A stretch of 64,000 nucleotides of DNA from an uncultured Candidatus Binatia bacterium (GTDB lineage: Bacteria > Desulfobacterota > Binatia > UBA9968 > JAJDTQ01): contig OZ244869.1 in NCBI GenBank assembly GCA_965221155.1, positions 2,584,772 through 2,648,771 of the forward strand, in the 5' to 3' direction. The notes under the pieces are model-generated. The model saw only the letters and a program-made list of their open reading frames with translations. It did no database searches and was not told where the DNA came from. A program made the translations under genes and the position numbers. Positions 3,334 through 63,360 of this stretch are shown here, in pieces. Numbering within the stretch: the stretch's first letter is position 1; each line of letters opens with the position of its first letter.

Positions 3334-3345
3334 CGTATTTCCGGA

Positions 3346-3516: not shown

Positions 3517-3711
3517 GCCGTGTCTCCTGGCGGTCACTTTGACCGCTGTTGCCGTGAAAATCAACAGAACCTCGTGACATCGTGCCCGTCGCCACCTGTT
3601 TGCCCAACGAAACCGCACTGGCTATATTTGGGGCTGCGTTACCTTCCGCCGGCTCAGCGCCTTAACTCAGTGCCATAGACTTCGCCACAACATACGAGAG
3701 GAGAATTCACC

Positions 3712-9401: not shown

Positions 9402-9619
9402 GAAGCCTCCCGTGCCAAAGCAGGATTGTTGTCTCGACGGGTGCTACCCGTGGTTCGGTTGTACGCGTCGAGCCTCCGCGGGCGTCGCGTTCGTGGTTCG
9501 AACTGCGACGCCTTACACAGATACTAATCGTTCGGGCGGCCCTGAACTTTAGCGTCCGACGGGGTGGGAGGCACAATTTTGCGGCAGGCTGGTGTTTGTG
9601 TTTTCTTTGTGGCACCGCC

Positions 9620-9775
9620 CTCCGACTCCCTCTCCCTTTGGGAGAGGGTTGGGGTGAGGGAACCTCGTGGCACGCCGGCTGGGGTTAACGGCAGGGGATG
9701 GGAGGGGCAGGGTTGTTGGGGGCCCTCACCCGGCCTTCGGCCACCCTCTCCCAGGGGGAGAGGGGTTGAGATTGG
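9620..9775. repeat. ~155-bp intergenic palindromic element, family D (CTCTCCC...GGGAGAG arms), copy 1
   Basis: Reverse complement matches 29095-29260 nearly end-to-end: 'cctctcccnnngggagagggtggccgaaggccgggtgagggc...ccctcaccccaaccctctccc'. Internal inverted repeats. Confidence 0.8.
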
Positions 9776-10960: not shown

Positions 10961-12004
10961 ATGTTCGAGACGCTCGGATTCCAGCACGTCACTCCGCTCC
11001 AGGCGTCCGTGGTGCTGGGCCTTGTGCTCGGCGCCGTGTACGGCGCGCTGGCGCAGCGCACCGGGTTCTGCCTCCGCCGCAGTCTGGTCGGAGACCGGAA
11101 CGAATGCCTTCCGGCGCTCGGCGTCTGGGCCATGGCATCGGCGATGGCGATTGCCGGGACCCAGGGGGCGGTGGCCGCGGGAGTGGTCTCCTTCGACGCG
11201 CACCGGTTCCTCGCGCCCGACCTTCCCGTCGTTGCGGTCCTGGTGGGCGGCGCGCTGTTCGGCGCCGGGATGGTGCTCAGCGGCGGCTGCGTCTCACGTC
11301 TCGCGGTTCTTTCCGGCGCCGGCAACCTGCGGGCGGTCCTTGTCCTGGTGGTCTTCGCGATTGTCGCCCACGCGGCGATGAAGGGAGTGCTGGCGCCGTT
11401 GCGCTCGGCACTCGCCGGGATAACCGTTGACCCCGGTGGCGTGGTTGCGCTGACCGCACTGCCCGGCGGGGCCGTCTGGGCCTGGAGTCTGGCGCTCGCC
11501 GCCGCGGTCCTGGCGTTGCGTTCCGGCGCGTCGCGTCGCCACCTGGTGATGGCTGCGCTGATCGGGCTCCTCGTGCCGCTGGGATGGGTCGGGACCGGTT
11601 TTGTCCTCCAGGACGGCTTCGACCCCTTGCCGCTGCAGTCCCTGGGATTTACCGGGCCCACGGCCGACACCCTGTTCTGGACCATGGCGGCCACCGCCAT
11701 TCCCGCGGGATTCGGAACCGGTCTTGCAGCCGGCGTGGTGGCCGGAAGCGTTGCCGCTGCGGTTTCCGCGGGCGAGTTTCGCTGGGTCAGCCTGGAAGGG
11801 CCGCGGCAGACCGGCCGGTACCTTGCGGGCGCCGCGTTGATGGGAACGGGCGGTGTCCTGGCGGGTGGTTGTACGGTGGGGGCCGGACTGTCCGGTGTGT
11901 CGACCGCGAGCATTGCCGCGATCCTGGCGCTCACGGCGATGGTGACGTCGGCAAGGATCGCGGGAAGATTTCTAGCCCAGGAGCCGACGCGGACAGTGGC
12001 CTAG
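10961..12004 (+). CDS. YeeE/YedE family sulfur-compound transporter (thiosulfate transporter TsuA-like)
   Basis: 347 aa, ~9-10 TM helices, two repeat halves each with the conserved Cys-containing loop (QRTGFCLRRS ... GGCTVGAG). Confidence 0.8.
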   Translation: MFETLGFQHVTPLQASVVLGLVLGAVYGALAQRTGFCLRRSLVGDRNECLPALGVWAMASAMAIAGTQGAVAAGVVSFDAHRFLAPDLPVVAVLVGGALFGAGMVLSGGCVSRLAVLSGAGNLRAVLVLVVFAIVAHAAMKGVLAPLRSALAGITVDPGGVVALTALPGGAVWAWSLALAAAVLALRSGASRRHLVMAALIGLLVPLGWVGTGFVLQDGFDPLPLQSLGFTGPTADTLFWTMAATAIPAGFGTGLAAGVVAGSVAAAVSAGEFRWVSLEGPRQTGRYLAGAALMGTGGVLAGGCTVGAGLSGVSTASIAAILALTAMVTSARIAGRFLAQEPTRTVA

Positions 12005-12181
12005 GAGCCTGCGTCACAAATACGCTTATGAATCTGCGGGTCCTTTTGGCCGTCGGCTGCGTTGCTCTTCCTCGCGTGGTGCACGCCACTGCTCGTCCTG
12101 AGCGTAGCGAAGCGGAGTCGAAGGACGCCTTGCCGACAACCAAAATGCCCTCGCAGATTCATAAGCGTATTTGTGACGCAG
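12005..12181. repeat. MITE-like element, family F: 28-bp terminal inverted repeats CACAAATACGCTTATGAATCTGCG flanking ~120 bp that contains a family-C palindrome
   Basis: TIR at 12005-12033 and inverted at 12153-12181. Second copy in opposite orientation at 25856-26026. Confidence 0.8.
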
Positions 12182-12220
12182 GACACTAGGAGCCTGCGCC
12201 GCAGGAACCCGGCATCCGAT

Positions 12221-12345
12221 GTAGGGGCGGGTTTCAAACCCGCCCGTGCCCGCACGGCGCTGCCGGCCGATACAGGCTCCTAGGCGACTGGAACGCGGAC
12301 TGCCCGGACGAGGCATGTAGGGGCGACCGGCCGGTCGCCCCCACG
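12221..12345. repeat. REP family A unit (GTAGGGGCGGGTTTCAAACCCGCCC) plus variant palindrome GTAGGGGCGACCGGCCGGTCGCCCC
   Basis: 21-bp perfect palindrome GGGCGGGTTTSAAACCCGCCC preceded by GTAG. Variant core also at 35342-35369. Confidence 0.8.
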
Positions 12346-12395
12346 GGATTCCGCCGTGGCGTAGGGCCTCTAAGAGCCTGTCCGCTCCCTCACCA

Positions 12396-21308: not shown

Positions 21309-21400
21309 CGTCATTCCCGCGAAAACGTGTGTGTGAAAACTCAATTCGAGAGAGGCAACGGCCCCCGAAATCGTCATTCCCGCGAAAGCGGGAATCCAGG
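21309..21400. repeat. tandem palindromic repeat family E (unit core GTCATTCCCGCGAAAGCGGGAATCC), 1.5 units
   Basis: Same ~60-bp unit 'cgtcattcccgcgaaa(a/g)cg..tgtgt.aaaac...gagaggcaacg.cccccgaaa' recurs as a longer array at 63038-63360. Confidence 0.75.
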
Positions 21401-21437
21401 CGGGGTGGGGCGGGCGGTCCGGGACCGGGAACCCCTC

Positions 21438-24692: not shown

Positions 24693-24835
24693 CGCCGTCC
24701 CGGTGGAAATCGCCCACGCCGTGAGCGATATTCGCCCAGGTGATGGGCGATATGCATTGCCTGCCTCGGTTCGCTGGAGTTTCGGACGTGAGGGAGAAGG
24801 GTAGGCTTTTGTCGAGCCCGAAGGGAAGCCGGTCC

Positions 24836-25849
24836 ATGCGATTCTACGTAAACATCCTTTCCACCTACTACCCCGACCTCGACCCGCCCTACGGGGTCTA
24901 CTACCGGCAGATGCTGGAACAGATCGAGCTGGCCGAGGAGTTGGGTTTCGAATGTTTCATGTTCAACGAGCACCACTTCCTGGGTTATGGCGGCCTCATC
25001 GCCAACCCGGCGGTGATGCTGGCCGCGGCGGCTGCCAGGACATCCAGGATCCGCCTGGGCCCCTGCATCGCCATTCTGAGCGTGCGGCACCCCCTTCAGG
25101 TGGCCGAGGACTACGCCATGGTGGATGCCGTCTCGGGCGGACGGCTGGAGTTTGGCATCGGGCTCGGCAACACGGCGCTGGACTACCGGGTTTTCGAGAC
25201 GCCGCAAGCAGAAGGACGCGCGCGGTATCAGGAGGCCCACGACGTCATCGTCAAGGCATGGACCCACGACCGCTTCAGCCACGAGGGGGAGTTCTGGAAG
25301 TTCGAGGAGATCACCCTCTATCCGCGGCCCGTGCAGCAGCCGTTGCCGGTGATGTGGGTGGCAGGCACCTCGCCCGAGGGACTCGGATGGGCCGGCCGCA
25401 AGGGCTATCACATCATGACCGTGGGCCATCCCCATCCGCCGGACAAGGTGCGCGCGGGCGTGGAGGCTTGGCGGGAAGGACTCGTGGCCACGGGACGCGA
25501 CCCCAAGGACTACCACTGCCAGTACCACCTGCGCACCTACGTCCACGAGAAAGCCGCGACGGCGCAGGAGATCGGACAGCAGGCGATCTCACGCTACGAG
25601 GCGATCTCACGGATCCAGCGCAAGGCGCCGCTGCCGCCGGGCTACGTGTACGACTGGAAGGGGATGCTGGAAACCGGACGCAACCTCTACGGCGACCCGG
25701 ATCAGTGCATCGAGATCATCAACAACGCCCGCCGCCACTACGACTTCGACACCCTGACCCACAACTTCAACTTCGGCGGCCTGCCGCACGAGGATGTCAA
25801 GAAGTCCATGCGCCTCTTCGCGCGGGAAGTCATGCCCGCGTTCCGCTAG
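24836..25849 (+). CDS. LLM-class flavin-dependent oxidoreductase
   Basis: Start at ATG 24836. 'LGFECFMFNEHHF', 'RLEFGIGLGNTALDY'. 337 aa. Confidence 0.85.
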   Translation: MRFYVNILSTYYPDLDPPYGVYYRQMLEQIELAEELGFECFMFNEHHFLGYGGLIANPAVMLAAAAARTSRIRLGPCIAILSVRHPLQVAEDYAMVDAVSGGRLEFGIGLGNTALDYRVFETPQAEGRARYQEAHDVIVKAWTHDRFSHEGEFWKFEEITLYPRPVQQPLPVMWVAGTSPEGLGWAGRKGYHIMTVGHPHPPDKVRAGVEAWREGLVATGRDPKDYHCQYHLRTYVHEKAATAQEIGQQAISRYEAISRIQRKAPLPPGYVYDWKGMLETGRNLYGDPDQCIEIINNARRHYDFDTLTHNFNFGGLPHEDVKKSMRLFAREVMPAFR

Positions 25850-25855
25850 TGTGGT

Positions 25856-26026
25856 GTCTCACAAATACGCTTATGAATCTGCGAGGGCATTTTGGTTGTC
25901 GGCAAGGCGTCCTTCGACTCCGCTTCGCTACGCTCAGGACGAGCAGTGGCGTGCACCACGCGAGGAAGAGCAACGCAGCCGACGGCCAAAAGGACCCGCA
26001 GATTCATAAGCGTATTTGTGAGACAC
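25856..26026. repeat. MITE-like element family F, copy 2 (inverted relative to copy 1)
   Basis: TIRs 'cacaaatacgcttatgaatctgcg' at 25860-25884 and inverted at 25997-26021. Internal family-C palindrome 'ccttcgactccgcttcgctacgctcaggacga'. Confidence 0.8.
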
Positions 26027-26067
26027 CACACTAGGCTCTTGTATCGGCCATAGCGCGGTCCGGGAAC

Positions 26068-26162
26068 GGGCGGGTTTGAAACCCGCCCCTACATCGGATG
26101 TCGGATGCGGAGGCCTACGAGGCCCGATGAGCCAGTGTAGGGGCGGGTTTCAAACCCGCCCG
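26068..26162. repeat. REP family A inverted pair (GGGCGGGTTTGAAACCCGCCCCTAC ... GTAGGGGCGGGTTTCAAACCCGCCC)
   Basis: Two 25-bp palindromic units in inverted orientation separated by ~45 bp. Confidence 0.85.
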
Positions 26163-26196
26163 TTCCCGGACCCACTGCCCCGCTCGGGACAGGCTC

Positions 26197-27189
26197 CTAA
26201 AGATTGACTCGCGCCATGCCGTCGGGCGGATAGCGGTCGCCCGCCGCCGCGCCCGGCGGGAACGCGGCATCCAGCGCGGCCATGTCTTCCGCCGTCAGGG
26301 CGATGTCGATGGCCTTGAGGTTCTCTTCGAGGTGGGTGCGCCGCTTGCAGCCGGGAATGGGAAACACGTTGCCGCCCTGGGCCAGCACCCAGGCGATGGC
26401 GATCTGCGCCGGCGTCGCTCCGTGCGCGTCGGCGATCTTCCGGATCGCGGCAACGCGTTCGCGGTTGGCGGCGGCGTTCTCGTCCGAAAAGCGTGGAAAC
26501 TTGTGCCGCAGGTCGCCCTCCGGCAGCGCGTCGCGTCCGCCGACGGTACCGGCCAGGAACCCGTAGCCCAGCGGTGCGTAGGCCATCAGCCCGAGGCCTA
26601 GTTCGTCGCACGCCTCGAGATGTCCGCCTTCGACGTCGCGGGTCCAGAGCGAGAACTCGAACTGCAGCGATACCAGCGGATGGGCCTTCATCGCCCGGCG
26701 CAGGGTCCCGGGCGCGGCTTCCGAGAGGCCGATGAATCGGGTCTTGCCTTCCTCCACGAGCCGGGCCATGGCGCCGACCGATTCTTCGATCGGTACGGTG
26801 GGATCCACCCGCGACATGCAGAGCGCATCGAGCGTCTCGATGTCGAGATTCTTGAGGCTGGTTTCACAGATCAGGCGCAGCCGGTCCGGTGTGCCGCTCC
26901 CTTGAGCCAAGGACGAGCCGTCGTTCGCGCGGACGGTGCCGGTCTTGGAGTGGATGAAGACCTTCCCGCGCTTTCCGCCCTTCAGCGCCTCGCCGATGAG
27001 CCGGTGGTTATGCCCCTGGCCATAGCTGGCAGATGTATCCAGCAGCGTCACGCCGAGTTCGATGGCGCGGTGGATGGTGGCGATGGATTCCCCATCGTCG
27101 CCCGCACCGTACGCCCCCGACATGGAAAAACAGCCGAGCCCGATGCGCGACAGCTTCTCGCCGGTATTGCCGAAGATGGCGCTTTCCAT
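26197..27189 (-). CDS. aldo/keto reductase family oxidoreductase
   Basis: 330 aa. AKR blocks 'LGCFSMSGAYG', 'LLDTSASYGQGHNHRLIGEAL', C-terminal 'IPGCKRRTHLEENL'. Confidence 0.9.
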   Translation of the reverse strand: MESAIFGNTGEKLSRIGLGCFSMSGAYGAGDDGESIATIHRAIELGVTLLDTSASYGQGHNHRLIGEALKGGKRGKVFIHSKTGTVRANDGSSLAQGSGTPDRLRLICETSLKNLDIETLDALCMSRVDPTVPIEESVGAMARLVEEGKTRFIGLSEAAPGTLRRAMKAHPLVSLQFEFSLWTRDVEGGHLEACDELGLGLMAYAPLGYGFLAGTVGGRDALPEGDLRHKFPRFSDENAAANRERVAAIRKIADAHGATPAQIAIAWVLAQGGNVFPIPGCKRRTHLEENLKAIDIALTAEDMAALDAAFPPGAAAGDRYPPDGMARVNL

Positions 27190-29094: not shown

Positions 29095-29260
29095 TCCCTC
29101 TCCCTCTGGGAGAGGGTGGCCGAAGGCCGGGTGAGGGCGCCCCAACAACCCTGTCCCGCCCATTGTTCCCCAATTCAACGGGCCGCTTGCAACGGATACC
29201 CTCACCCCAACCCTCTCCCGGAGGGAGAGGGGGTCGGAGGCCATTGTCGGAGCAAGACCC
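29095..29260. repeat. family D palindromic element, copy 2
   Basis: Reverse-complement match to 9620-9775. Confidence 0.8.
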
Positions 29261-30362: not shown

Positions 30363-30367
30363 TCGGC

Positions 30368-30514
30368 GCCCTTCGACTCCGCTTCGCTCACGCTCCGCTA
30401 CGCTCAGGACGAACGGTAGAATGTCCTTCAGCCGTTGGGACGAACGGGAAAATGCCCCTCAACCGTTCGTCCTGAGCGTAGCGGAGCGCCAGCGGAGCGA
30501 AGTCGAAGGACGCC
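30368..30514. repeat. REP family C inverted pair (CCTTCGACTCCGCTTCGCTACGCTCAGGACGAAC ... GTTCGTCCTGAGCGTAGCGGAGCG..GAAGTCGAAGG)
   Basis: ~145-bp hairpin-capable element filling the entire gap between two convergent/tandem genes. Related copies at 50978-51095 and inside family-F MITEs. Confidence 0.8.
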
Positions 30515-30520: not shown

Positions 30521-31774
30521 CTAGCGCGGCGCCACCAGAATCTCTTCCCGTGGAAAGTGGTCCATGATCTCGGCGCCGTCCTTGGTCACCACCACCATGT
30601 TCTCCAGCCGCACGCCGCCCACGCGGGTTTCGCCCTCGCGGCTCTCGATGGCGATGGTCATGCCCTCCTCGAACTCCTGCGGGTACTTCAGGGACCACTG
30701 GCGGTTGATGATCGGGATGTCGTAGTTGGTGCTTCCCTGGGTGAGGCCGATGCCGTGGGCGATCTCGCTGGCGAGCACCTCGCACTCTTCCTCGTAGCCC
30801 CAACTCGTCGCGGGCGGAAAATGCTTGGCGGCGTCGGCCGTGGTGTTGCCCGGCTTGATGGCGTCGATGACGCCGTCGATGCTGTCCCGCACGCGCTTGT
30901 ACCAGTCCTGCTCCTTGGCGTTGGGTTTCCTGCCGACGATGAAAGTCCGGTAGGTGCACGTGGCGTAACCCTGGTAGGTCAGGCCGCAGAGCGAGCCGTA
31001 CAACAGGTCGCCGGTCTGCAAAAGCCGGCTGGACTGATGGAAGCCGCGGTCGAAGGTCGTGGGTCCGGAGCGCCAGCCTCCGGGCGGGGCCGACTCCGCG
31101 CCCATGTCGTAGCCGGCCTTGGTGGCCACGCCCGAGAGGTCGGTATCGCGCACGCCCGGCTTGGCGGTCTCCCAGATGCGGTACCAGACGCCTTCCACGA
31201 TGGCCGCCGCGGTCTTGAGGCATTCGATCTCGTCGTATGTCTTGATCTTGCGGATCTCCTTCATCACCAGGCTGAAGTCCACGAGGTTCTTGACGCCGGC
31301 GTTGGTGAGGGCTTCGCGCGCGATGCCGTCGAAGGCGCTGAAGCCGATCTTCTCGTTCAGCAGGCCCCGGCTCTTGAGTTCGTCGTGGATGTCGGCGGCG
31401 AACTGCCGGGCCTCGTCCTTGGCCGCCTCGATGCCGCAGGCGGCGGTCAGCCAGGCCCGTGCCGGGCGCCATTCCTTGATCCAGGGCGCCTGATCCGGCA
31501 TCTGGTGGAAGTGGCCGCTGTGCTCGTACATGATCGGGTCGTGGTCGGCGAAGAAAAGCGTGTAACGGCACATGGGGTAGTTGAAGCCCTTGAGGCCGGT
31601 GAGGTAGCGGATGTTCGCCGAGTTGGCTTCCAGCAGCACCGGGATCCCGTGCTCGCGCATGATCCGCTTGGCCCGCTCGGCGCGCTCGCGGCGCAAGCGG
31701 TCCGTGTTCAGCCGTTCCTGCCAATCCGATATCTCGTTGCCGTACGTGAGCTTGGATGCGTACCGTGGTGCCAT
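30521..31774 (-). CDS. M24 family metallopeptidase (Xaa-Pro aminopeptidase/creatinase-like)
   Basis: 417 aa. N-terminal creatinase-like domain + C-terminal pita-bread domain with metal ligands (D...D...H...E...E pattern, e.g. 'HGIGLTQGS', 'ESREGE'). Confidence 0.8.
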   Translation of the reverse strand: MAPRYASKLTYGNEISDWQERLNTDRLRRERAERAKRIMREHGIPVLLEANSANIRYLTGLKGFNYPMCRYTLFFADHDPIMYEHSGHFHQMPDQAPWIKEWRPARAWLTAACGIEAAKDEARQFAADIHDELKSRGLLNEKIGFSAFDGIAREALTNAGVKNLVDFSLVMKEIRKIKTYDEIECLKTAAAIVEGVWYRIWETAKPGVRDTDLSGVATKAGYDMGAESAPPGGWRSGPTTFDRGFHQSSRLLQTGDLLYGSLCGLTYQGYATCTYRTFIVGRKPNAKEQDWYKRVRDSIDGVIDAIKPGNTTADAAKHFPPATSWGYEEECEVLASEIAHGIGLTQGSTNYDIPIINRQWSLKYPQEFEEGMTIAIESREGETRVGGVRLENMVVVTKDGAEIMDHFPREEILVAPR

Positions 31775-31944
31775 GTAAGAAACCTCCTTTGGTGGCTGTG
31801 GGAATCAGGGGTCTATCCCACCAGGGCGGGTCGGAAACCCGCCCCAACATGCCCATATGAGCCGGTCCTTGTCAAGGTTCGGGCGGGGTAATAGGATGAG
31901 CCGAAGCCCGATGCGGCAGCCACTAACGAAGGAGGGAACGGAAG

Positions 31945-34504: not shown

Positions 34505-34546
34505 GGGGTGCTGGCAGTCGCGGTGGCGTCCTGCAGTCGGCAGAGG

Positions 34547-34954: not shown

Positions 34955-34969
34955 CGGACAGGGACGCGT

Positions 34970-35341: not shown

Positions 35342-35369
35342 GTAGGGGCGACCGGCCGGCCGCCCCTAC
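35342..35369. repeat. REP family A variant unit GTAGGGGCGACCGGCCGGCCGCCCCTAC
   Basis: Same variant core as 12317-12345. Confidence 0.7.
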
Positions 35370-35401
35370 GCTCGCTACAATTCGACTGCTCGGGCAGGCT
35401 C

Positions 35402-37648
35402 CTAAGATTCGTGCAGCGCCGCGTACACCTTCTCCGCGGTGAGCGGCAGGTCGTAGACGCGGGCGCCCACGGCGTCGGCCACGGCGTTGGCGATGGCGGC
35501 GGCGGTGGGCACGTTGGGGAGCTCGCCGATGGCCTTGCCCTGGAAGGGGACGGGGCCTTCGCCCTGCTCGACGAACACGGTGTCGAGCCTGGGGATGTCC
35601 TTGGCGCAGGGCAGTTTGAAGTCACCGAGGTTCAGGGTGGTGATCTTGCCGTCGGACATGGGGTTGTCTTCCATCAGCGCGAAGCCCACGCCGTTGACCA
35701 CGCCGCCGTCGATCTGGCCCTGGTAGGTCAGGTGGTTCAGGATCCTGCCGGAGTCGTGGGCGGTGGTCATCCGGGTGACCCGCACCTGGCCGGTTTCCGG
35801 ATCCACTTCCACCTCGGCGATCTGGGCAGCGAACGACGTGATGGGCGGCTGGCCTTCGGGCGCGAAGATCGTGTCGTGGTGAAACGACCCGCCCGCCTCG
35901 GCGATGGCCGCCTGGGCCACCTCCGCGAACGACAGCTCGCCACCCTCGGGGGCGGCGAAGCGGCCGTCCACCCGGCCTATCTTGTCGGGCTGGCAACCCA
36001 GTTTCCGGGCGGCGCACTCCACGAGTTTCTCATGGACCTCCCGGGCGGCCTTGTGGGCGGCGTGGCCGGTGGTGTTGGTGGACTTGCTGCCGCCGGTGCC
36101 GGGATCCCAGGGCGAGTTGTCGGTGTCCTCGACCCGGATGCGAATGGTCTCGGGCGCGGTGCCCAGGGTCTCGCTGACGATCTGCACGATGGCGGTGTGG
36201 ATTCCGGGCCCCACGTCGGGCACGCCGACGAGGACCGTCACCGTGCCGTCTTCATCGAGATCGATGCCGGCGTTGGCGTTGCCGCCGCCGGCGCCGCGCT
36301 CATAGAGGGCGATGCCGCGGCCGCGGTTGGGTCCGGGCGTACTCTTGCGCCATCCCGACGCCTCCACGGCCTTTTCCAGGGTTTCCTTGGCCAGGATGCC
36401 GTCCCACTTGGCGCCCAGCGGCGAGGTGTCGCCGGGGTCCAGCAGGTTGTGTAGCCGGAAGTCCACGGGATCGATGCCCATCTCCCTGGCGATGTGGCCC
36501 ATCTGCGACTCCACGGCGAAGACGATCTGCGGGCTTCCTGGGGTGCGGGTCTGGGTGCACGGGACCTGATTGGTGTAGGCGCACACGGTCTCGATGCGGA
36601 TAGCCGGCACCCGGTAGTAGCTGGCGAGCCGCTTGGCGCCCAGCACCGTGATCTCCGGGTTGGCCTTCCAGGCGGCGTAGGCGCCGCCCGCGAACGTGAC
36701 CTTGCCGTCGACGGCCGTGAGGGTACCGTCGTTCGTGACCCCGACGCGCAGGGTCACGATGGCCGGATGCCGGTGGGCGGCGGTGGCGATCTCCTCGGTG
36801 TAGGTGAGGACCATGCGCACCGGCCGGCCCGTTTCCTTGGCCAGGAAGTAGCACACCGGGGTGTCTATCATGGAAGCCTTGCCGCCGAAGTCCCCACCCA
36901 CCGAAAGGATGTGGACGTTGACCTTCTCGGGCTCGATCTCGAGGTCCTGGGCCAGCCGGTTCTTGAGCGCGAACGGCCCCTTGTTGGAGGCCCACACCTC
37001 CACGTTGCCTGACGAGTCCACCGCCACGGTGCAGGAGTGGGGCTCCAGGTAGCCGTGGTGCGCCAGTTGCGTGGCGAAGGTGTTCTCGAACACGCGGTCA
37101 GCGTTCGCGAATCCGCCGTCGACGTCGCCGTTCTGCCAGATGCTGTGGGACTGGACGTTGGGCCGGTCCGGGTCCACGCCCTCGGCCAGCGGCGGCGCGT
37201 TCTTGTAGTCCCGCGGCGCGTCGTGGAGCGCCGCTGTGCCGGGCTTGACCGCCTCCAGCGGGTCGTAGACACCGGGAAGCTCCTCGTAGTCCACGTCGAT
37301 GAGGCGTAGCGCCGCATCGGCGATCTCGGGCGTGTCCGCGGCCACCGCGGCCACCGGATCGCCCACGAACCGGACCTTGTCCGTCGCCAGCACCGGCATG
37401 TCCTTCATGCGCAGTCCGACGTACACCTCGGGCAGGTCAGAGCCGGTAAGAACGGCGTGGACGCCCGGCAGCGCCTTGGCCGCGGCGGTATCGATCTTGC
37501 GAATTCGCGCATGGGCCAACGGGCTGCGAAGGACCTTGGCATAGAGAGATTCGGGTATCGGCAAATCCGCGGCGTAGCGCGTGGCGCCGGTGACTTTCTC
37601 CGCGCCCTCGATGCGGGGCATGGGCATTCCGATTGTTTGATAGGACAA
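35402..37648 (-). CDS. xanthine dehydrogenase family molybdopterin-binding (large, CoxL/XdhB-like) subunit
   Basis: 748 aa. Aldehyde oxidase/xanthine dehydrogenase a/b hammerhead and MoCo-binding blocks ('GDFGGK', 'GGAYAAWK', 'EGQPPITSFAAQIAEVEVDPETGQVRV'). No adjacent small (2Fe-2S) or medium (FAD) subunit genes. Confidence 0.85.
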   Translation of the reverse strand: MSYQTIGMPMPRIEGAEKVTGATRYAADLPIPESLYAKVLRSPLAHARIRKIDTAAAKALPGVHAVLTGSDLPEVYVGLRMKDMPVLATDKVRFVGDPVAAVAADTPEIADAALRLIDVDYEELPGVYDPLEAVKPGTAALHDAPRDYKNAPPLAEGVDPDRPNVQSHSIWQNGDVDGGFANADRVFENTFATQLAHHGYLEPHSCTVAVDSSGNVEVWASNKGPFALKNRLAQDLEIEPEKVNVHILSVGGDFGGKASMIDTPVCYFLAKETGRPVRMVLTYTEEIATAAHRHPAIVTLRVGVTNDGTLTAVDGKVTFAGGAYAAWKANPEITVLGAKRLASYYRVPAIRIETVCAYTNQVPCTQTRTPGSPQIVFAVESQMGHIAREMGIDPVDFRLHNLLDPGDTSPLGAKWDGILAKETLEKAVEASGWRKSTPGPNRGRGIALYERGAGGGNANAGIDLDEDGTVTVLVGVPDVGPGIHTAIVQIVSETLGTAPETIRIRVEDTDNSPWDPGTGGSKSTNTTGHAAHKAAREVHEKLVECAARKLGCQPDKIGRVDGRFAAPEGGELSFAEVAQAAIAEAGGSFHHDTIFAPEGQPPITSFAAQIAEVEVDPETGQVRVTRMTTAHDSGRILNHLTYQGQIDGGVVNGVGFALMEDNPMSDGKITTLNLGDFKLPCAKDIPRLDTVFVEQGEGPVPFQGKAIGELPNVPTAAAIANAVADAVGARVYDLPLTAEKVYAALHES

Positions 37649-37710
37649 CGTTCACCTCCGGTTCGCCTATTCTACGGATGCAGGAGCCTGCGCCACAGGG
37701 CGACGAGGGT

Positions 37711-37783
37711 GTAGGGGCGGGTTTCAAACCCGCCCGCAGTTAGCGCCATGCGAGCGCGGGCGGGTTTGAAACCCGCCCCTACT
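37711..37783. repeat. REP family A inverted pair
   Basis: GTAGGGGCGGGTTTCAAACCCGCCCG ... GGGCGGGTTTGAAACCCGCCCCTAC. The second unit overlaps the stop codon of the downstream gene. Confidence 0.85.
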
Positions 37784-38864
37784 AGTTCAGTATCCCGGCC
37801 GCGTTCTCGCCCAGGATCTTGCGCTTGTTCTCTTCGGTCAGCTTGTCACTCTCAAGGATGGGCCGGGTCACCTCACCGGGAGGGGAGGAGTCCCAGTGCG
37901 GCGTGTCCGTGGCCAGCACGAGGTTGTCGTCGCCGAGCATCTCCACCGCCACTTCGAAGTGCTCGTCCTCGAACGGCTCGCAGCCGACGTACACCTGCCG
38001 CATGAAGTACTCGCTCGGCTTCATCTTGAGCCAGGGCACCAGGTGGGGCAGCTTCTCGTGGTGCTCGTCCATGCGCCCCAGCCACCACGGCATCTGCGAG
38101 GCGCCGGTTTCCAGGCATACCAGGTTCAGCTTGGGAAACCGTTCCAGTACGCCGCCGCAGATGAACGTCATCATGCACACCATGGACTCGAAGACGCGCC
38201 CGACCATGTGGGAGAAAAAGAAGTTGTCGGCGAACCGTTCCTGGCCCATGGACTCGTGCTTGGTGTCGTGGATGATAATGGGCCAGTGCAGGTTCTCCAA
38301 CTCGGCGTAGATGGGGTCGTAGTACGGGTCCCACCACTGGCGGCCCGCCACCGGCACCGCTTTCATGTTGAGGGCCGTGTTGCCCATCTCAGCCATGCGA
38401 TGTAGCTCCTTCACCGCCAGGTCCACGTCCTGCAGCGGGACCACGCCGGCCCATTGCAGGCGCTCCGGAAACTCGCCGGCGTACTGCCGCATGTAGTTGT
38501 TCTGGGCACGGCAATAGGCCGCCGCCAGCTCGGGGTCTTCGGGAAACCACACCAGGTCCAGCGCCGGCGAGTTGGGCGAGAGCACGGCCACGTCGATGCC
38601 GTCCTTGTCGAGGTTCCGCACGCGGCCCCCGGCCACGAGGTCTTCCGCCTTGTGCCATTCGGGCTTCTCGCCGCTCTGCCGGGTGACCTCCGAGCCCACC
38701 ATGATCCGCGAGCCCACCAGGGTCTTGCGCCTTTCGTCGGGTTTCGTCGGAAGCGGGCGGGGTAATTGATCCCTCCACTCCTCCTCGATGCAGTGCTTCC
38801 AGTTGCCCACGTCTCCCACCAGATGGCTGTCTAGGTCGATGACCTTGGTACCGTTGATGGCCAT
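37782..38864 (-). CDS. amidohydrolase-2 family protein
   Basis: Start reassigned to ATG 38864 with perfect AGGAGG RBS (MAINGTKVIDLDSHL...). 'ATDTPHWD' C-terminal block. 360 aa. Confidence 0.8.
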   Translation of the reverse strand: MAINGTKVIDLDSHLVGDVGNWKHCIEEEWRDQLPRPLPTKPDERRKTLVGSRIMVGSEVTRQSGEKPEWHKAEDLVAGGRVRNLDKDGIDVAVLSPNSPALDLVWFPEDPELAAAYCRAQNNYMRQYAGEFPERLQWAGVVPLQDVDLAVKELHRMAEMGNTALNMKAVPVAGRQWWDPYYDPIYAELENLHWPIIIHDTKHESMGQERFADNFFFSHMVGRVFESMVCMMTFICGGVLERFPKLNLVCLETGASQMPWWLGRMDEHHEKLPHLVPWLKMKPSEYFMRQVYVGCEPFEDEHFEVAVEMLGDDNLVLATDTPHWDSSPPGEVTRPILESDKLTEENKRKILGENAAGILN

Positions 38865-39120: not shown

Positions 39121-40071
39121 ATGCTTTTTCTCAAAGAGACGCCGGTGGAGACCATCATCCCCATGCCTCAGGCCATCGAGGCGGTGGAGGAGGCCCTGGC
39201 GGAGGCCTCCCGCGGCAACGCCGTGGTGCTGCCGCGCCGGCGCATCCATCACGGCAACCGGATGTTGTTCGGCGTGCTGCCGGGCTCCTTCAAGGGGGCC
39301 ATGGGAGCGTATCTTCAGACCGACCGGGACCGCGCCATCCATCACGAGACCGTGATCCTCTACAGCGTCGAGACCGGCGAGCCGTTGATGCTGTTCCAGG
39401 ACTGCTCCATCAACGAGCTTCGGACCGGCGCGGCGGGCGGCGTCGGTGCCAAGCACCTGGCCCCGCCGGACGCCCGCCGGGTGGCGGTCATCGGTAGCGA
39501 GAAACACGCCTTCACCCAACTCCAGGCGGTGTGCGCGGTGCGCCCCATCGATACCGTCAGGGTCTTCAGCCCCGCGCCGGCGCACCGAAGTCGGTTCGCT
39601 GACCGCGTTCGCGCCGGTCTGGGCCTGGAGGCTACGGCCACGGACAGCGCCGAGGCCGCGCTGGAGGGCTCGGACATCGTCATCACCGCCACCAACGCCC
39701 AAAGCCCGGTCTTCGAAGGCAGCGGCCTTCGGCCCGGGATGCACGTCACCTCCATCGCCAACGGCGACAAGACCCGCATGCGCGAGGAGATCGACCGGGA
39801 CACCATGAGGCGGGCAGCCAGGGTCTGCATCACCTCGAAGGCGACCGTGCAAACCAACGAGAGCGACATATTCCGCGCGGTTCGGGACGGCGTGCTCACC
39901 TGGGACGGCGTGTGCGAACTGGGAGACGTGATCCTCGGAAACGCCCCCGGCCGCACCGCGCCGGACGAGATCACGCTGTTCAAGCTTCAGGGGCTGGGGA
40001 TCATGGACCTTGCGTTGGGGTTGCGGGCGTACGAGGCGTTGAAGGACTCGGCTTCGGTGCAGCGGATCTAG
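39121..40071 (+). CDS. ornithine cyclodeaminase/mu-crystallin family protein
   Basis: 316 aa. Rossmann 'VAVIGSEKHAFTQLQAV', family-typical N- and C-terminal blocks. Confidence 0.85.
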   Translation: MLFLKETPVETIIPMPQAIEAVEEALAEASRGNAVVLPRRRIHHGNRMLFGVLPGSFKGAMGAYLQTDRDRAIHHETVILYSVETGEPLMLFQDCSINELRTGAAGGVGAKHLAPPDARRVAVIGSEKHAFTQLQAVCAVRPIDTVRVFSPAPAHRSRFADRVRAGLGLEATATDSAEAALEGSDIVITATNAQSPVFEGSGLRPGMHVTSIANGDKTRMREEIDRDTMRRAARVCITSKATVQTNESDIFRAVRDGVLTWDGVCELGDVILGNAPGRTAPDEITLFKLQGLGIMDLALGLRAYEALKDSASVQRI

Positions 40072-40157
40072 TGTCCTGTCCCACATTGAAGTTGACAAAT
40101 CTGCCGGTCTTTTCGCCGCCGGCGGCGTTGCTCTTCCTCGCGTGGTGCCGGCCACAC

Positions 40158-40304
40158 GGGCGGGTTTGAAACCCGCCCCTACAAGTCATCGCGCCTTGCG
40201 ACGACGAAAATCCTGCGCATCTTCGTATTTGTAGAACGCAACACTAGGAGCCTGCGCCACAGGAACCTGACATCCGATGTAGGGGCGGGTTTCAAACCCG
40301 CCCG
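40158..40304. repeat. REP family A inverted pair flanking ~95 bp (MITE-like)
   Basis: Units at 40158-40183 and 40279-40304. Internal segment similar to that of 44609-44763. Confidence 0.85.
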
Positions 40305-40309
40305 TTCCC

Positions 40310-41104: not shown

Positions 41105-41162
41105 GGCGGTTCCTCCCCCGCGGACCTTTCACCCGTGCATGTTTCTCTCGCGCCTCTTCACG

Positions 41163-41239
41163 TAGGTCGGGTTAGCCGAAGGCGTAACCCGACTCCCCCC
41201 GCCCCCCGTGTCGGATTACGCTTCGCTAATCCGACCTAC
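41163..41239. repeat. REP family B inverted pair
   Basis: GTAGGTCGGGTTAGCCGAAGGCGTAACCCGAC ... GTCGGATTACGCTTCGCTAATCCGACCTAC. Confidence 0.85.
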
Positions 41240-44506: not shown

Positions 44507-44608
44507 CAGAGGAGTCGCTAGTGTGGTGTCCCACGTAATCGTTTACAAATCTGCTGGTCGTTCTTGCCGTCGGCTGCGTTACTCTTCCTCGCGTGGTGCC
44601 CGCCACAC

Positions 44609-44763
44609 GGGCGGGTTTGAAACCCGCCCCTACAAGTCATCGCGCCTTGCCGACAACAAGAAATCCTGCGCATCTTTGTAAACGCTTACGTGGGACACCA
44701 CACTAGCAACGGGACTTTTGTTGTCGTGTGACGACCTTGTAGGGGCGGGTTTCAAACCCGCCC
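44609..44763. repeat. REP family A inverted pair flanking ~105 bp (MITE-like)
   Basis: Units at 44609-44633 and 44738-44763. Internal sequence homologous to the 40158-40304 element. Confidence 0.85.
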
Positions 44764-49843: not shown

Positions 49844-49964
49844 GTCGGATTACGCTTCGCTAATCCGACCTACGCGTTGCGGACGGGAGTCCTGGTCGTA
49901 GGGGGTTGCGGGCGGCGGGCTTGAGCGCCCGGCAGTAGGTCGGATTGGCGAAGCGTAATCCGAC
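49844..49964. repeat. REP family B pair in outward-facing arrangement
   Basis: GTCGGATTACGCTTCGCTAATCCGACCTAC (49844-49873) and GTAGGTCGGATTGGCGAAGCGTAATCCGAC (49935-49964). Confidence 0.85.
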
Positions 49965-49985
49965 AATCCGAGATCCGACAGACCA

Positions 49986-50918: not shown

Positions 50919-50977
50919 GGTACACCTCCTGCACGCCAACTATAGAGGCCCGGAAGCTCGCAGACAAGGCCAACGGA

Positions 50978-51095
50978 CGTCCTTCGACTTCGCTCCGCTT
51001 CCTTCGATTTCGCTCCGCTCAGGACGAACGGAAAGATGGCCCCACAACCGTTCGCCCTGAGCGTAGCTCGGCCCGGCCGAGCGAAGTCGAAGGGC
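50978..51095. repeat. REP family C inverted pair
   Basis: 'tccttcgacttcgctccgct...ctcaggacgaacg' ... 'cgttcgccctgagcgtagc...gaagtcgaaggg'. Confidence 0.8.
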
Positions 51096-51132
51096 CTGTC
51101 CTGAGGTTGTCGAAGGGCCCATCACAAACAAA

Positions 51133-54078: not shown

Positions 54079-54157
54079 TCAGCCGCCGTTCCCGATCCCG
54101 GATCAAGTCAGTGAAGACGGGAGAAGAGGCCGCGCTTCTACGTAGCGCCCGGCACGC

Positions 54158-54307
54158 GGGCGGGTTTGAAACCCGCCCCTACAAACCATCGCGTTTGGCC
54201 GACGACACAACGTCTTTCGCACCTTCACAAATGTACTGAGGGAGGGGACACCAGGATCCTGCGCCGCGGGAAAACGAGCGTGTAGGGGCGGGTTTCAAAC
54301 CCGCCCG
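54158..54307. repeat. REP family A inverted pair flanking ~100 bp (MITE-like)
   Basis: Units at 54158-54182 and 54282-54307. Confidence 0.85.
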
Positions 54308-54339
54308 CGCTCGCACCGCGCTGTCGGTGATACAGGCTG

Positions 54340-55263
54340 CTAGAACGCCACCCGCCCCTCCGCCCACGCCCGAATCAGGTGGTGGGCGATGGCCACCGGG
54401 TCCGGGACGCGCAGGTTCGGGTTTCCCCCGGCCAAGGCGGACACCACCTCGTCCCGGGTGAACCATTGCACGTCGGTCATCTCCTCGTCGTCCTTGGCGA
54501 TGTCGGTGGTGAGGGCCTTGCCGTGGCAGCCGATCATCAAGGACGAGGGGAAGGGCCAGGGTTGGGAGGAGTGATAGCGCACCTCGCCTACCTGTATTCC
54601 GGCTTCCTCCTTCACCTCCCGCCGGACGGCTTCCTCAATGCACTCGGCCTGGTCGATGAAGCCGGCCAGGGCGGAGTAGCGTCCGGATCGGGCCAGCCGT
54701 CCGCGGGACTGGCCCAGCAAGGCGCGCTCGCCGTCGGTGATGACCATGATGGCCACCGGGTCGGTGCGGGGAAAGTGCTCGGTATTGCAGGCGGTGCACT
54801 TCCGCACCTGGCCGCCGCGCCCCTGCTCGGTGGGGCCGCCGCACAGGCCGCAGAACCGGTGCCGGCGGTGCCAATCCACCTGGGCCTTGCTCTGGGCCAG
54901 GATGCCCACGTCCTGGGGCGTTAGCTGCGCGGCCGCGGCCCGGGCCTCGACGAAGCTCCAGGGCTCTTCCAGGTTCAGCTCCTGGAGCGGCTCGGAGAGC
55001 GCGGAGACGTCCACCGCGAAGTGGGCGGCGCCGTCCATGAGGCCGAGAAAGACCGGCGGGCCGTCGAGGCCCAGCCTTTCGATGTCCGCGGGCTCCACCC
55101 ATCCAAGCTCAGCGTTGGAGCCGTTCCGCAACAGGAGGTCGAGCTGCCACAGCGGCAGGAAGCGGGAACGGGGGTCCCGGGCCGCCCGCGTGAGCCAGTC
55201 TTCATCCCGGCGCTGCACGTCGCCCCGGTCCAGGGGATTGCCGGAAAAAACGTGTGTCGTCAT
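54340..55263 (-). CDS. nudC: NAD+ diphosphatase NudC (Nudix hydrolase with zinc ribbon)
   Basis: Start at ATG 55263. Zinc ribbon 'CGLCGG...CTAC'. Nudix box 'GFIDQAECIEEAVRREVKEEAGI'. C-terminal 'QWF' motif. Confidence 0.85.
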   Translation of the reverse strand: MTTHVFSGNPLDRGDVQRRDEDWLTRAARDPRSRFLPLWQLDLLLRNGSNAELGWVEPADIERLGLDGPPVFLGLMDGAAHFAVDVSALSEPLQELNLEEPWSFVEARAAAAQLTPQDVGILAQSKAQVDWHRRHRFCGLCGGPTEQGRGGQVRKCTACNTEHFPRTDPVAIMVITDGERALLGQSRGRLARSGRYSALAGFIDQAECIEEAVRREVKEEAGIQVGEVRYHSSQPWPFPSSLMIGCHGKALTTDIAKDDEEMTDVQWFTRDEVVSALAGGNPNLRVPDPVAIAHHLIRAWAEGRVAF

Positions 55264-61322: not shown

Positions 61323-61422
61323 GAGCGCCGAAGCGGTAATGGAATACGGCGTCAGTTAACCACCTTATCAGGGTGAACTCAAGGCGGCCGATGAGGCCGA
61401 TGACCCACGTTTTTGTTCCACG

Positions 61423-61500
61423 TAGGTCGGGTTAGCCGAAGGCGTAACCCGACACCGCACTGCGGCCCTGTGTCGGATTACGCGTCGCTAATCCGACCTA
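61423..61500. repeat. REP family B inverted pair
   Basis: GTAGGTCGGGTTAGCCGAAGGCGTAACCCGAC ... GTCGGATTACGCGTCGCTAATCCGACCTA. Confidence 0.85.
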
Positions 61501-61597
61501 TCCGGGACCGGAACGTAGCGTGAAATGATCCTGGCACTTCTCTCTTGCCGGTGTCCTGCTTCGGGATCCGTATGCTAAGATGCGCGGCAGTGTCCAC

Positions 61598-61677
61598 GTA
61601 GGTCGGGTTAGCCGAAGGCGTAACCCGACACCACACCGCGGCCCGGTGTCGGATTACGCTTCGCTAATCCGACCTAC
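61598..61677. repeat. REP family B inverted pair (second, ~100 bp downstream of the first)
   Basis: Near-identical to 61423-61500. Confidence 0.85.
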
Positions 61678-62952: not shown

Positions 62953-63037
62953 GAGTGGCCGCTCCCGTCATCACCATGGAAGTAGTCCGCGAATTCCGGC
63001 ATCGCGTCGGTGGGGAAATGGCACGGAGCCTCGGAAA

Positions 63038-63360
63038 TCGTCATTCCCGCGAAACAGGGTGTGTCAAAACTCCATCCGGGAGAGGCAACGCCGCCCGAAA
63101 ACGTCATTCCCGCGAAAGCGGCTGTGTCAAAAGGCCAACTTCGGGGTACGGAAGGCCAATCCGTCATTCCCGCGAAAGCGGGAATCCAGGGGTGGAGGAG
63201 GGGTGCGGCGGCATGCTGCCTCGCCCCCGCCCCACCTGGATTCCCGCTTTCGCGGGAATGACGGAGGGGGCGCGGGAATGACGGATTTGAGGCGTCAGCG
63301 CCCCAGTCGTACCCAAGGATGGCGTTTTCACGCGGCCTGTTTCGCGGGAACGACGGATTC
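63038..63360. repeat. array of family E palindromic repeats (GTCATTCCCGCGAAAGCGGGAATCC cores) in direct and inverted orientation
   Basis: At least three direct ~60-bp units (63038, 63099, 63161) followed by inverted partial units (63238-63284, 63340-63360). Homologous to 21309-21400. Confidence 0.75.

Follow-up and report, generated by a model that had tools for sequence, protein, structure and literature searches.

Several kinds of short palindromic repeats have been described from bacterial genomes. Repetitive extragenic palindromic (REP) sequences of the GTAG type in Escherichia coli, Pseudomonas, and Stenotrophomonas, with the REPINs and bacterial interspersed mosaic elements (BIMEs) that they compose, join a GTAG tag to a GC-rich hairpin and are associated with REP-associated tyrosine transposases (RAYTs) (PMC3733652, PMC3116915). 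REPs of the CGTC-1 class, which includes Neisseria dRS3, carry CGTC ahead of an 8-bp stem whose first bases are AT, have a 4-nt loop and a CCA tail, and occur mostly as head-to-head dimers; no transposase association has been reported for this class (PMC3733652). Insertion sequences (ISs) of the IS630 family insert at TA and duplicate it (PMC2170065), and IS630 itself prefers TA within CTAG according to Tenzen and Ohtsubo (1991) as cited in that paper. Here, the repeats in the intergenic gaps of a 64,000-nt stretch of the “Candidatus Binatia” contig OZ244869.1 (65% GC) were analyzed, among them those in the gap at 12005-12390; the whole stretch is called the window, and coordinates are window positions. 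The gap repeats probably represent at least six families of small noncoding palindromic elements of three known mechanistic kinds, namely, GTAG REPs, a CGTC-1 REP together with untagged dimers, and a miniature inverted-repeat transposable element (MITE) of the IS630 family. These are known element kinds in a new host, and no Binatia REPs were described in the literature searched. The kinds are ordinary, but they are unusually dense, mixed, and dynamic in the window.

Self-BLAST of the window recovered 24 blocks of repeated DNA that total 3,095 bp. With genes called from composition (60 in the window, one of them an open reading frame [ORF] cut by the window end), the substantial blocks were all intergenic, nearly all gaps longer than ~180 bp were filled with repeats, and repeats made up 41% of intergenic bases, occupying 18 gaps. 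Occupancy was 7 of 9 for convergent, 10 of 41 for codirectional, and 1 of 10 for divergent gaps, in keeping with the excess between convergent genes that an initial annotation had noted. Motifs of the named families occurred far above chance (0 matches in shuffled controls), and the repeats that the same annotation had placed in the gaps are real. The gap at 12005-12390 contained an element of family F with a C unit inside it, a 98-bp unit centered on REP-A, and a REP-A2 hairpin (Table 1). It separates two convergent genes (window 10961-13700), which encode a Sulf_transp (sulfur-transport family) protein and a flavocytochrome c sulfide dehydrogenase flavoprotein.

Stretches of other DNA used for comparison carry L numbers (L001, a Logan short-read contig; L010 to L124, a genome scan; L126 to L245, a metagenome scan; L246, a Pseudomonas syringae plasmid; L247, a Pseudomonas veronii plasmid). 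Repeats collapse short-read assemblies, and L001, which has an OCD-family gene identical to that of the window (39121-40071), stops at 2396, inside a REP-A core; the repeats might on this ground be taken for assembly or binning artifacts. Eight syntenic loci from independent long-read assemblies carried the same families, at syntenic positions in several of the assemblies, and so the repeats are not assembly artifacts. REP-A was also present in closed chromosomes, in the isolate genome of Lamprocystis purpurea DSM 4197, and on a Gloeothece plasmid. The possibility of an artifact, which the initial annotation had raised, is thus already refuted, and its probability is negligible. REP-A-type repeats do fragment short-read metagenome-assembled genomes (MAGs) of this Binatia lineage. 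Homologues of the OCD-family gene with 81 to 96% identity were found in MAGs labeled “Candidatus Binatia” or “Deltaproteobacteria bacterium.”

Families A, A2, and B agreed with the sequence definition of GTAG REPs, being imperfect palindromes of 20 to 40 bp with an unpaired 5' GTAG. The REP-A 25-mer (GTAG followed by the stem GGGCGGGTTT/AAACCCGCCC) occurred in 11 exact copies. A2 (GTAG followed by the stem GGGCGACCGG/CCGGTCGCCC) was a distinct variant, GTAGGGGCGACCGGCCGG(T/C)CGCCCC, at 12317 and 35.3 kb; the copy at 35.3 kb had earlier been counted in family A, and an A-like copy at 31824 had been overlooked. Family B (GTAGG followed by TCGG(A/G)TTA...TAA(T/C)CCGA) gave 4 exact consensus matches and 10 arms in all, arranged as five dimers, of which four were head to head (GTAG ends outward, spacers of 12 to 17 nt) and one was tail to tail (naming after Di Nocera et al., PMC3733652). 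Every head-to-head B dimer combined a B1 arm, whose loop is CCGAAGG, with a B2 arm, whose loop is CGAAG, as BIMEs pair the slightly different Y and Z REPs. All 11 exact copies of A and all 10 arms of B in the window were intergenic, and they mostly formed inverted dimers. The stems of A, A2, and B were GC rich and 8 to 12 bp long, and most units lay in inverted dimers that folded into hairpins of 80 to 130 nt, with the head-to-head and tail-to-tail arrangements known from REPINs. Like described GTAG REPs, these lay outside genes, for the most part on the downstream side and no more than 20 nt from a stop codon, with GTAG contributing to a TAG stop. REP-A units were joined tail to tail at 26.1 kb and head to head at 37.7 kb, one dimer each, and three further A pairs, ~100 bp apart, were juxtapositions. 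The inverted pairs previously reported had internal spacers of 12 to 105 bp rather than 60 to 120 bp. Unlike described GTAG REPs, REP-A was never naked in this Binatia lineage but was embedded either in the center of F or in a ~98-bp unit, the G-type unit (CTAGGAGCCTG...REP-A...CAGGCTCCTAG). In searches of the G-type flanks against annotated plasmids, only the REP-A core was matched, and no parent element was found.

Outside the Binatia, the association of these exact hairpins with RAYT genes was observed directly. RAYT genes were searched for by tblastn and profile hidden Markov models, a six-frame regular expression for HUH, WQxRF, and YIxxNP motifs being too strict and missing RAYT-like genes. 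The exact REP-B2 30-mer was found in at least 120 metagenome stretches, 4 of which carried a classical RAYT (NF047646 [REP_Tyr_transpos], 189 bits versus a cutoff of 80) with inverted REP-B hairpins on both sides. The closest named relatives of these RAYTs among the matches listed were from Marinobacter, and REP-B occurred in Marinobacter-like Gammaproteobacteria. At least 115 genome stretches, which represent many phyla and include closed chromosomes, carried the exact REP-A 25-mer (chance expectation, ~0.001; 2 x 5.96e11 / 4^25); hosts beyond the Binatia included Dehalococcoidia, Anaerolineae, Deinococcus, Rubrobacter, Oscillospiraceae, Planctomycetota, Patescibacteria, and the Lamprocystis purpurea isolate. 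Outside the Binatia, 52 of 121 copies were perfect GTAG...CTAC palindromes of 29 bp, usually with a single one to an 8-kb block, and only 6 of 103 blocks were below 50% GC. The palindrome was scattered, often as a single copy, and also occurred inside unrelated ORFs. In the Gloeothece verrucosa PCC 7822 plasmid NC_014502 (L248, 2330-2587), for example, it lies in frame in an unrelated 85-amino-acid hypothetical ORF (…DLIVGAGFKPARTKD…), where the GC-rich palindrome is set in visibly AT-rich surroundings and resembles a self-contained mini-insertion.

A Y1_Tnp gene was present in 4 of the at least 115 REP-A stretches (Pfam E ~1e-8). The best NCBIfam model for these genes was REP_Tyr_transpos at 71 to 78 bits, below the cutoff of 80; clade members are labeled “REP element-mobilizing transposase RayT” by JGI, and the best solved-structure match of the clade profile was 4ER8, E. 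coli TnpA_REP. The top 30 structural matches of an AlphaFold model of one RAYT-like protein (pLDDT 86.6) were all Y1 HUH transposases. Hairpins of the GTAGGGGC type adjoined the RAYT-like Y1 gene in 8 of 8 loci. In one locus (L249, which is not from Binatia), the gene lay between exact REP-A copies 47 bp upstream and 12 bp downstream.

The hairpin also occurs within the transposase gene. The intragenic REP-A sequence, GTA GGG GCG GGT TTC AAA CCC GCC CCT AC, reads in frame as VGAGFKPAPT, and the peptide VGAG(F/L)KPAPT was found in at least 83 of 108 clade members (proteins P0121 to P0240), in the same loop and in some members in tandem. Hairpin centers inside and outside the gene covaried in 7 of 8 loci (GGTTCCAAACC in L250; GGGTTTATAACCC in L252 and L253; GGTCTCAGACC in L079; GGTTTCAAACC in L121, L056, and L017), the exception being L249, with TCTCAGA inside and TTTCAAA in the flanking copies. 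The peptide occupies residues 99 to 109, the sole internal low-confidence region of the model, immediately after the HUH strand, and the loop that bears it is predicted by the model to be disordered. Tentatively, REP-A may be the hairpin cognate to RAYT-like Y1 enzymes that form a very large clade spanning phyla and carry this hairpin in frame in their own gene, a reading that is less likely than not. No account of the intragenic sequence or the peptide was found in the literature searched, and this finding may be new. If the reading were correct, the copy inside the gene could serve the enzyme as a protected master or as a site of self-regulation.

The GTAG families would be mobilized, by analogy with E. 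coli TnpA_REP, through a RAYT-type Y1 HUH enzyme that binds the single-stranded hairpin and reads GTAG, and cleavage and rejoining beside GTAG would disperse REP units. Mobilization by RAYTs, as previously proposed for these repeats, thus fits A, A2, and B by their form and by the identical hairpins that flank RAYT genes in other organisms; that the same happens in the source lineage is what we infer. REPIN-RAYT systems are described as mostly vertically inherited and lineage specific (PMC5581495), whereas exact REP-A and REP-B hairpins are common to distant phyla. Such identity would argue for horizontal REP-RAYT spread or extreme enzyme-imposed constraint, either of which would depart from that picture. 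It offers REPIN-RAYT research a natural case for testing how the sequence of a REP is coupled to enzyme specificity and horizontal transfer, and the RAYT-like clade with the hairpin inside its own gene is a second.

Family F, judged to have been misassigned in the initial annotation, is an IS630-family MITE, not a REP. It was ~185 bp long (180 to 189) and noncoding, present in the window as four full copies and a partial one, with more in L063, L011, and L125. Its terminal inverted repeats (TIRs) measured 31 to 38 bp, rather than the 28 bp reported before, with the terminus motif TGTGGTGTCTCAC and ends reading CTAG-TGTGGTGTCTCACAAATA, and all four full copies were bounded by CTAG. At 44.5 kb, the filled site in the window (GAGTCG-CTAG-TGTGGTGTCC...GGACACCACA-CTAG-CAACGG) could be compared with an empty site in L002 (GAGTCG-CTAG-TAACGG), which shows that F inserted as a discrete element at CTAG and duplicated its target; because CTAG is palindromic, duplication of TA and duplication of CTAG are indistinguishable. 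The terminal 22 nt of F matched both inverted ends of an IS on the P. veronii plasmid (CTAG-TGTGCTGTCTCACAAATA) at 21 of 22 positions. That IS is complete, CTAG bounded, and 1.17 kb long, with a single 355-amino-acid ORF encoding an IS630-family transposase (NF033545, 266 bits versus a cutoff of 100; Pfam DDE_3 and a helix-turn-helix domain), and on the P. syringae plasmid an IS630-like ORF (3102-4040) lies just inside the same terminus. F resembles IS630/Tc1-mariner ISs and MITEs (ISY100, PMC2170065) in its ends, in the duplication of TA within CTAG, in being a short noncoding multicopy element, and in having an interior that varies between organisms; it would be moved in trans by an IS630-type DDE transposase and inserted at TA inside CTAG with duplication of the target.

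The interior of F differs from that of IS630 MITEs in being a long palindrome with a REP-A or C center, so that two mobile kinds are nested. The central cassette is exactly 36 nt between identical flanks (GGCAAGGCG ... GTGGCG.GCACCACGCGAGGAAGAG). It was reported earlier that F encloses C units, which is true of the copies at 12001-12189 and 25846-26034; those at 40068-40247 and 44518-44706 hold a REP-A unit instead. At 44.6 kb, the apparent tail-to-tail “dimer” is an F element that landed, with its own REP-A core, beside a resident REP, and the resident REP-A at 44739 is common to L002 and hence older than the neighboring F insertion. REPs central in longer inverted repeats are known for GTAG-15 of Anabaena variabilis and CGTC-1 dimers of Halothiobacillus neapolitanus (PMC3733652); the outer palindrome here differs in being assignable to an IS630-type MITE with an insertion polymorphism, whereas theirs were without a transposon family. 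If REP hairpins were captured as an IS630 MITE core in Binatia, a second, DDE-driven route would exist for a Y1-type substrate.

The Correia elements of Neisseria are likewise MITE-like (~100 to 155 bp), with 26-bp TIRs and TA duplication, abundant in intergenic regions, and cotranscribed with neighboring genes. To our knowledge, no transposase has been identified for them. They are not known to resemble F in sequence, and the termini of F point to IS630. Y1 transposases (IS200/IS605) leave no target duplication. A rival account, the initial reading taken as the whole explanation, has all families, including F, as REP or REPIN elements mobilized by RAYTs. The GTAG tags and inverted dimers of A, A2, and B, the RAYTs flanking identical hairpins elsewhere, and the REP-A centers of F and G-type units would fit it, but the 31- to 38-bp TIRs of F match IS630-family ends, CTAG/TA is duplicated between filled and empty sites, and in L125 (a contig of 54% GC) a 150-bp element with F termini encloses an unrelated, REP-free interior. 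In addition, C and D lack GTAG, and E is a CGTC REP, a type with no known transposase association (PMC3733652). A common RAYT origin is quite improbable on this evidence, and the combination of GTAG REPs with an IS630-type MITE is preferred.

An origin of F from the IS5 family, with duplication of the 4-bp CTAG (YTAR) in place of TA, deserves consideration as well. The duplication may be taken to be 4 bp long, G-type ends also adjoin TTAG, which fits YTAR, the IS5-derived MITEPsy1 duplicates CTAG or YTAA (PMC3189936), and the matching terminus on the P. syringae plasmid has an IS5-like transposase gene ~60 bp away. That gene, however, is on the outer side of the terminus, which in both plasmids faces inward to the IS630-family ORF, and the IS of P. 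veronii is a complete one that has both inverted termini and flanking CTAG. The ends of MITEPsy1 we take to stand for IS5-type ends generally. The ends of F were unlike the MITEPsy1 TIR (GGAAGGTCTGAAAAAGCC; PMC3189936). An IS5-type origin is less likely than an IS630-type origin, and its probability is slim.

Family E consisted of three full hairpins and ~6 half-sites at 21.3 and 63.0 to 63.36 kb. The hairpin, CGTC-ATTCCCGC-GAAA-GCGGGAAT-CCA, was present at 21372 and 63162 (plus strand) and at 63238-63263 (minus strand), and a head-to-head dimer at 63155-63270 formed a 116-nt hairpin (dG -99, z -10.6). Judged by its sequence, E is a CGTC-1 REP of the Neisseria dRS3 type, in agreement with the definition on every point: like dRS3/NIME and the CGTC repeats of Alphaproteobacteria (PMC3733652), it has the tag, the 8-bp stem that opens with AT (ATTCCCGC), the 4-nt loop, and the CCA tail, and it forms head-to-head dimers. 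Its half-sites are clustered, 60 to 63 bp apart, much as dRS3 units are interleaved with other repeats in the NIME mosaics of Neisseria. It differs from described CGTC-1 REPs in occurring in Binatia, outside the Proteobacteria. Its tag had been overlooked when GTAG was noted, correctly, for families A and B. The half-sites (CGTCATTCCCGCG) are spaced 60 to 63 bp apart and lead to a full hairpin, and the mirrored arrangement at 63 kb produces a ~320-bp palindrome.

Families C and D were palindromic dimers without GTAG, and the view that they are RAYT-mobilized REPs is not upheld, no mobilizer having been identified for them. C units matched with 1 mismatch at 12091 (minus) and 25911 (plus), and diverged inverted dimers lay at 30365-30514 and 50976-51095; hairpins formed in the dimers only. 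C contains CGTC, and its assignment as a CGTC REP was rejected because one unit alone does not form the hairpin that the definition requires. Family D had two copies of ~146 bp, each a two-armed palindrome.

Several observations weigh against the assignment to these three mechanistic kinds. The window, the eight syntenic loci, and twelve 8-kb Binatia blocks (~330 kb together) yielded no RAYT or Y1 gene, a difference from described REP-RAYT systems, and tblastn of the same ~330 kb detected no IS630-family transposase. ORFs in indels of the syntenic loci (L003, 14518-15366; L005, 2935-3828 and 4096-4950) had no Pfam or NCBIfam match, and protein searches with REP-A- and REP-B-type RAYTs returned none on a recognized Binatia chromosome among the best 120 matches each. 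The genes for the RAYT and the IS630 transposase are assumed to lie elsewhere in the 4- to 5.7-Mb genome or to have been lost. The TIR match between F and the plasmid IS is short (22 nt, BLAST E ~1), and what makes it persuasive is solely its exact coincidence with the termini and CTAG flanks of an IS, seen in two independent elements. An IS5-type MITE would account equally well for a 4-bp duplication of CTAG (PMC3189936), and there is only one clean empty site, for F. In the relatives compared, A, B, C, D, and E gave no legible target-site signature, and at several gaps (40.1 and 41.2 kb) the whole spacer differed, which is not a simple insertion. G-type units end in CTAG in this genome only and in CTGG or CGAG in other Binatia; they were consequently not classed as IS630 MITEs. 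The explanation of nesting by CTAG scarcity, given below, also belongs among the weaker links.

Turnover was apparent from comparison with relatives. The same orthologous gap held different families in relatives whose flanking OCD proteins were 87 to 96% identical (Table 1), and because of the repeats the intergenic regions change faster than any other part of genomes that are otherwise syntenic. The repeats also push apart genes that once abutted and alter gene ends, including stop codons and a truncated antitoxin gene. Uncultured, environmentally widespread Binatia thus carry dense, mixed populations of classic bacterial mini-repeats.

Table 1. Repeat elements of the window, their occupancy in relatives, and RAYT-like genes of comparison stretches
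Coordinates	Feature	Strand	Size, folding, or overlap	State in relatives
9619..9764	D element, arms CCCTCTCCC-N3-GGGAGAGGG and GGGTGAGGG	.	z -2.7	
12001..12189	F copy 1, C unit 12091-12126 (minus), bounded by CTAG 12001-12004 and 12186-12189	-	189 bp	
12186..12283	G-type unit, imperfect palindrome CTAGGAGCCTG...CAGGCTCCTAG, center REP-A hairpin 12221-12245	+	98 bp; dG -53.5, z -3.7	
12317..12344	REP-A2 hairpin GTAGGGGCGACCGGCCGGTCGCCCC, conserved 3' flank to ~12385	+		
21309..21410	E half-site 21309, full CGTC-1 hairpin 63 bp on (21372-21397)	+		
25846..26034	F copy 2, perfect 38-bp TIRs, C cassette 25909-25944	+	DNA dG -74.8, z -13.7	
26031..26200	REP-A tail-to-tail dimer, GTAG ends inward, 26068-26092 (-) and 26137-26161 (+); G-type flanks	.	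dG -97.7, z -11.7	
29096..29240	D, second copy (29.1-kb gap)	.	z -4.8	Common to L006 orthologous site and shared in L006/L008; replaced by other sequence in L002 (L002-L005 replaced)
30365..30514	C inverted dimer, 6 nt from TAG stop of minus-strand gene 30521..31774 (30.4-kb gap)	.	150-nt hairpin; dG -109.8, z -13.8	L002-L005 absent; L006/L008 single unit
31824..31848	REP-A-like hairpin GTTGGGGCGGGTTTCCGACCCGCCC, divergent gap	-		Conserved in L002 and L006
34425..34504	REP-B head-to-head dimer (B1 + B2 arm) adjoining truncated vapB paralogue	.	z -8.3	
35342..35405	REP-A2 perfect palindrome GTAGGGGCGACCGGCCGGCCGCCCCTAC (35342-35369), then G-type end CAGGCTCCTA	.	Overlaps TAG stop of minus-strand gene 35402..37648	
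37680..37786	REP-A head-to-head dimer, 37711-37735 (+) and 37758-37782 (-) (37.7-kb gap)	.	z -8.6	L002-L005 G singleton; L006/L008 C-like unit; L009 nothing
40068..40247	F copy 3, degenerate TIRs, REP-A cassette 40158-40182 (minus)	+		Gap downstream of OCD gene (40.1 kb; F + G in window): L002-L005 family E; L006/L008 one D arm; L009 55 bp, no repeat
40244..40309	G-type unit truncated on right, REP-A 40279-40303	+		Same gap as F copy 3
41162..41239	REP-B head-to-head dimer in 224-bp gap (41.2 kb)	.	z -7.0	L002-L005 2 bp; L009 2 bp
44518..44706	F copy 4, REP-A cassette 44609-44633 (minus)	+	DNA dG -60.1, z -12.0	Insertion versus L002
44739..44763	REP-A singleton	+		1 mismatch versus L002 orthologous site
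49845..49965	REP-B tail-to-tail dimer, 60-bp spacer (49.9-kb gap)	.	dG -95.7, z -12.8	L002 left arm only (L002-L005 single arm); L006/L008 E-like remnant; L009 D-like fragment
50976..51125	C inverted dimer and one extra partial unit	.	z -6.5	
54141..54343	Partial F (right half, REP-A 54158-54182 -) fused to G-type unit (REP-A 54282-54306 +)	.		
61422..61677	Two REP-B head-to-head dimers (61422-61501, 61598-61677), 176 bp apart, divergent gap	.	z -6.9	
63034..63355	E cluster: half-sites 63039, 63102, full hairpin 63162 (+); mirrored 63251, 63271, 63343 (-)	.		
12044-12133, 25890-25990, 40110-40199, 44561-44650	F scaffold central regions			
12221+, 26068-, 26137+, 37711+, 37758-, 40158-, 40279+, 44609-, 44739+, 54158-, 54282+	REP-A 25-mer, exact copies	As given		
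L121 6412-6987; L079 1415-2062; L056 646-1263; L017 4463-5035	RAYT-like Y1 genes			
L249 10001-10555; L250 3893-4531; L252 2192-2749	RAYT-like Y1 genes, further loci			

Element ends were associated with stop codons. CTAG was threefold depleted in the window (26 sites versus 82 expected), and 11 of the 26 sites lay at element ends (binomial P ~1e-7). The stop codons of the 60 called genes were TAG in 29, TGA in 28, and TAA in 2; the TAG share is unusually high for DNA of 65% GC. Seven stop codons overlapped element termini (12002, 25847, 26197, 35402, 37782, 40069, and 54340). The left CTAG of F held the TAG stop of plus-strand genes in copies 1 (10961-12004) and 2 (24740-25849) and of the OCD-family gene in copy 3, the terminal CTAG at 54340-54343 held that of a minus-strand gene (54340-55410), and the right end of the element at 26031-26200 (CAGGCTCCTA) overlapped that of another (26197-27189). 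The CTAG context of the OCD-gene stop was also present at the repeat-free orthologous site in L009, indicating that the element targeted a preexisting stop. At 37782, the third base of TAG is the G of the second REP-A GTAG (minus-strand gene 37782-38966), and relatives have TAA or TGA there, so the REP supplies part of the stop, as already noted in the literature for GTAG REPs (PMC3733652); the overlap had been correctly reported and is one of the seven.

In contrast to IS630 MITEs, the main target of F appears to be CTAG formed by TAG stops. CTAG or TTAG targets would consist largely of stop codons and the CTAG ends of resident elements, and insertions would pile up directly downstream of genes, nest beside one another, and overlap or donate stops. 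With CTAG scarce and half of the genes ending in TAG, F may be channeled to gene ends and resident ends, which would lead to nesting. A CTAG-targeting MITE in a CTAG-depleted, TAG-rich genome would offer a concrete reason for the clustering of elements.

The inverted dimers of A, B, C, and E formed long, near-perfect hairpins (z -6.5 to -13.8), as did the two F copies folded (Table 1), and family D was weaker. They had been suggested to stand where terminators would be expected between convergent genes. No T-run followed the REP or dimer hairpins, and terminator-like sites in 25 to 45 kb were at chance level (13 versus 11.5 +/- 2.5 expected). None of the 13 was a REP hairpin or dimer, and three lay on small substems in the arms of F copies 2 and 3. 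A role as intrinsic terminators was rejected on these grounds. Rfam gave no match at the gathering threshold and, at E <= 0.1, only a spurious microRNA-precursor match on the long E hairpin.

A broader alternative holds that the hairpins are host-selected RNA 3'-end structures that do not move, repeated through convergence or ancient duplication. It draws on the strong bias of the elements to positions downstream of genes, 0 to 20 nt from stops and in most convergent gaps, on the conservation of the hairpin at 31824 in relatives, and on RNA-level roles inferred for REPs in the literature (PMC3733652). Close relatives, however, had unrelated families or nothing in the same gap, 11 copies identical over 25 nt point to recent spread, the F insertion polymorphism is clean, and T-tracts are lacking. 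Selection on immobile RNA structures is therefore an unlikely explanation of the repeats, and mobile DNA is the best one. The places that the elements occupy agree with roles that have been suggested for REPs at the RNA level (protection of 3' ends and effects on translation termination), and transcribed hairpins would probably act as 3'-end barriers, mRNA stabilizers, or translation-termination modulators.

One REP-B dimer adjoins a toxin-antitoxin cluster gene. A vapB paralogue (34249-34430, minus strand) was without its first six codons, with a REP-B arm exactly at the breakpoint; its frame was open through the REP, yet without ATG, GTG, or TTG. The missing 5' end was not found on the far side of the dimer, which indicates a rearrangement with the REP at the junction rather than a simple insertion. 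The truncation itself had been correctly reported. The paralogue is 80% identical over 182 nt to an intact vapB (34989-35180, minus strand), and the cluster (33819-35180) also contains PIN-domain genes at 33819-34232 (plus strand) and 34547-34954 (minus strand). The whole segment was rearranged or absent in the syntenic loci.

At 41105-41328, genes that are 224 bp apart in the window abut in L002 (12009-12012) and L009 (11801-11804), with a 2-bp gap and the start beside the stop. The spacer with the REP-B dimer places a new Shine-Dalgarno-like GGAGGAACCGCC directly before the downstream ATG (minus strand). The REP-A-like hairpin at 31824 lies on the promoter side of its divergent gap, with copies in relatives at ~3215 in L002 and ~5185 in L006. 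Substitutions in L006 (C to T in each arm) merely turn G-C pairs into G.U pairs, and the conservation of this hairpin hints that, in contrast to the copies that turn over fast, it has a constrained role, at the RNA level or of another kind.

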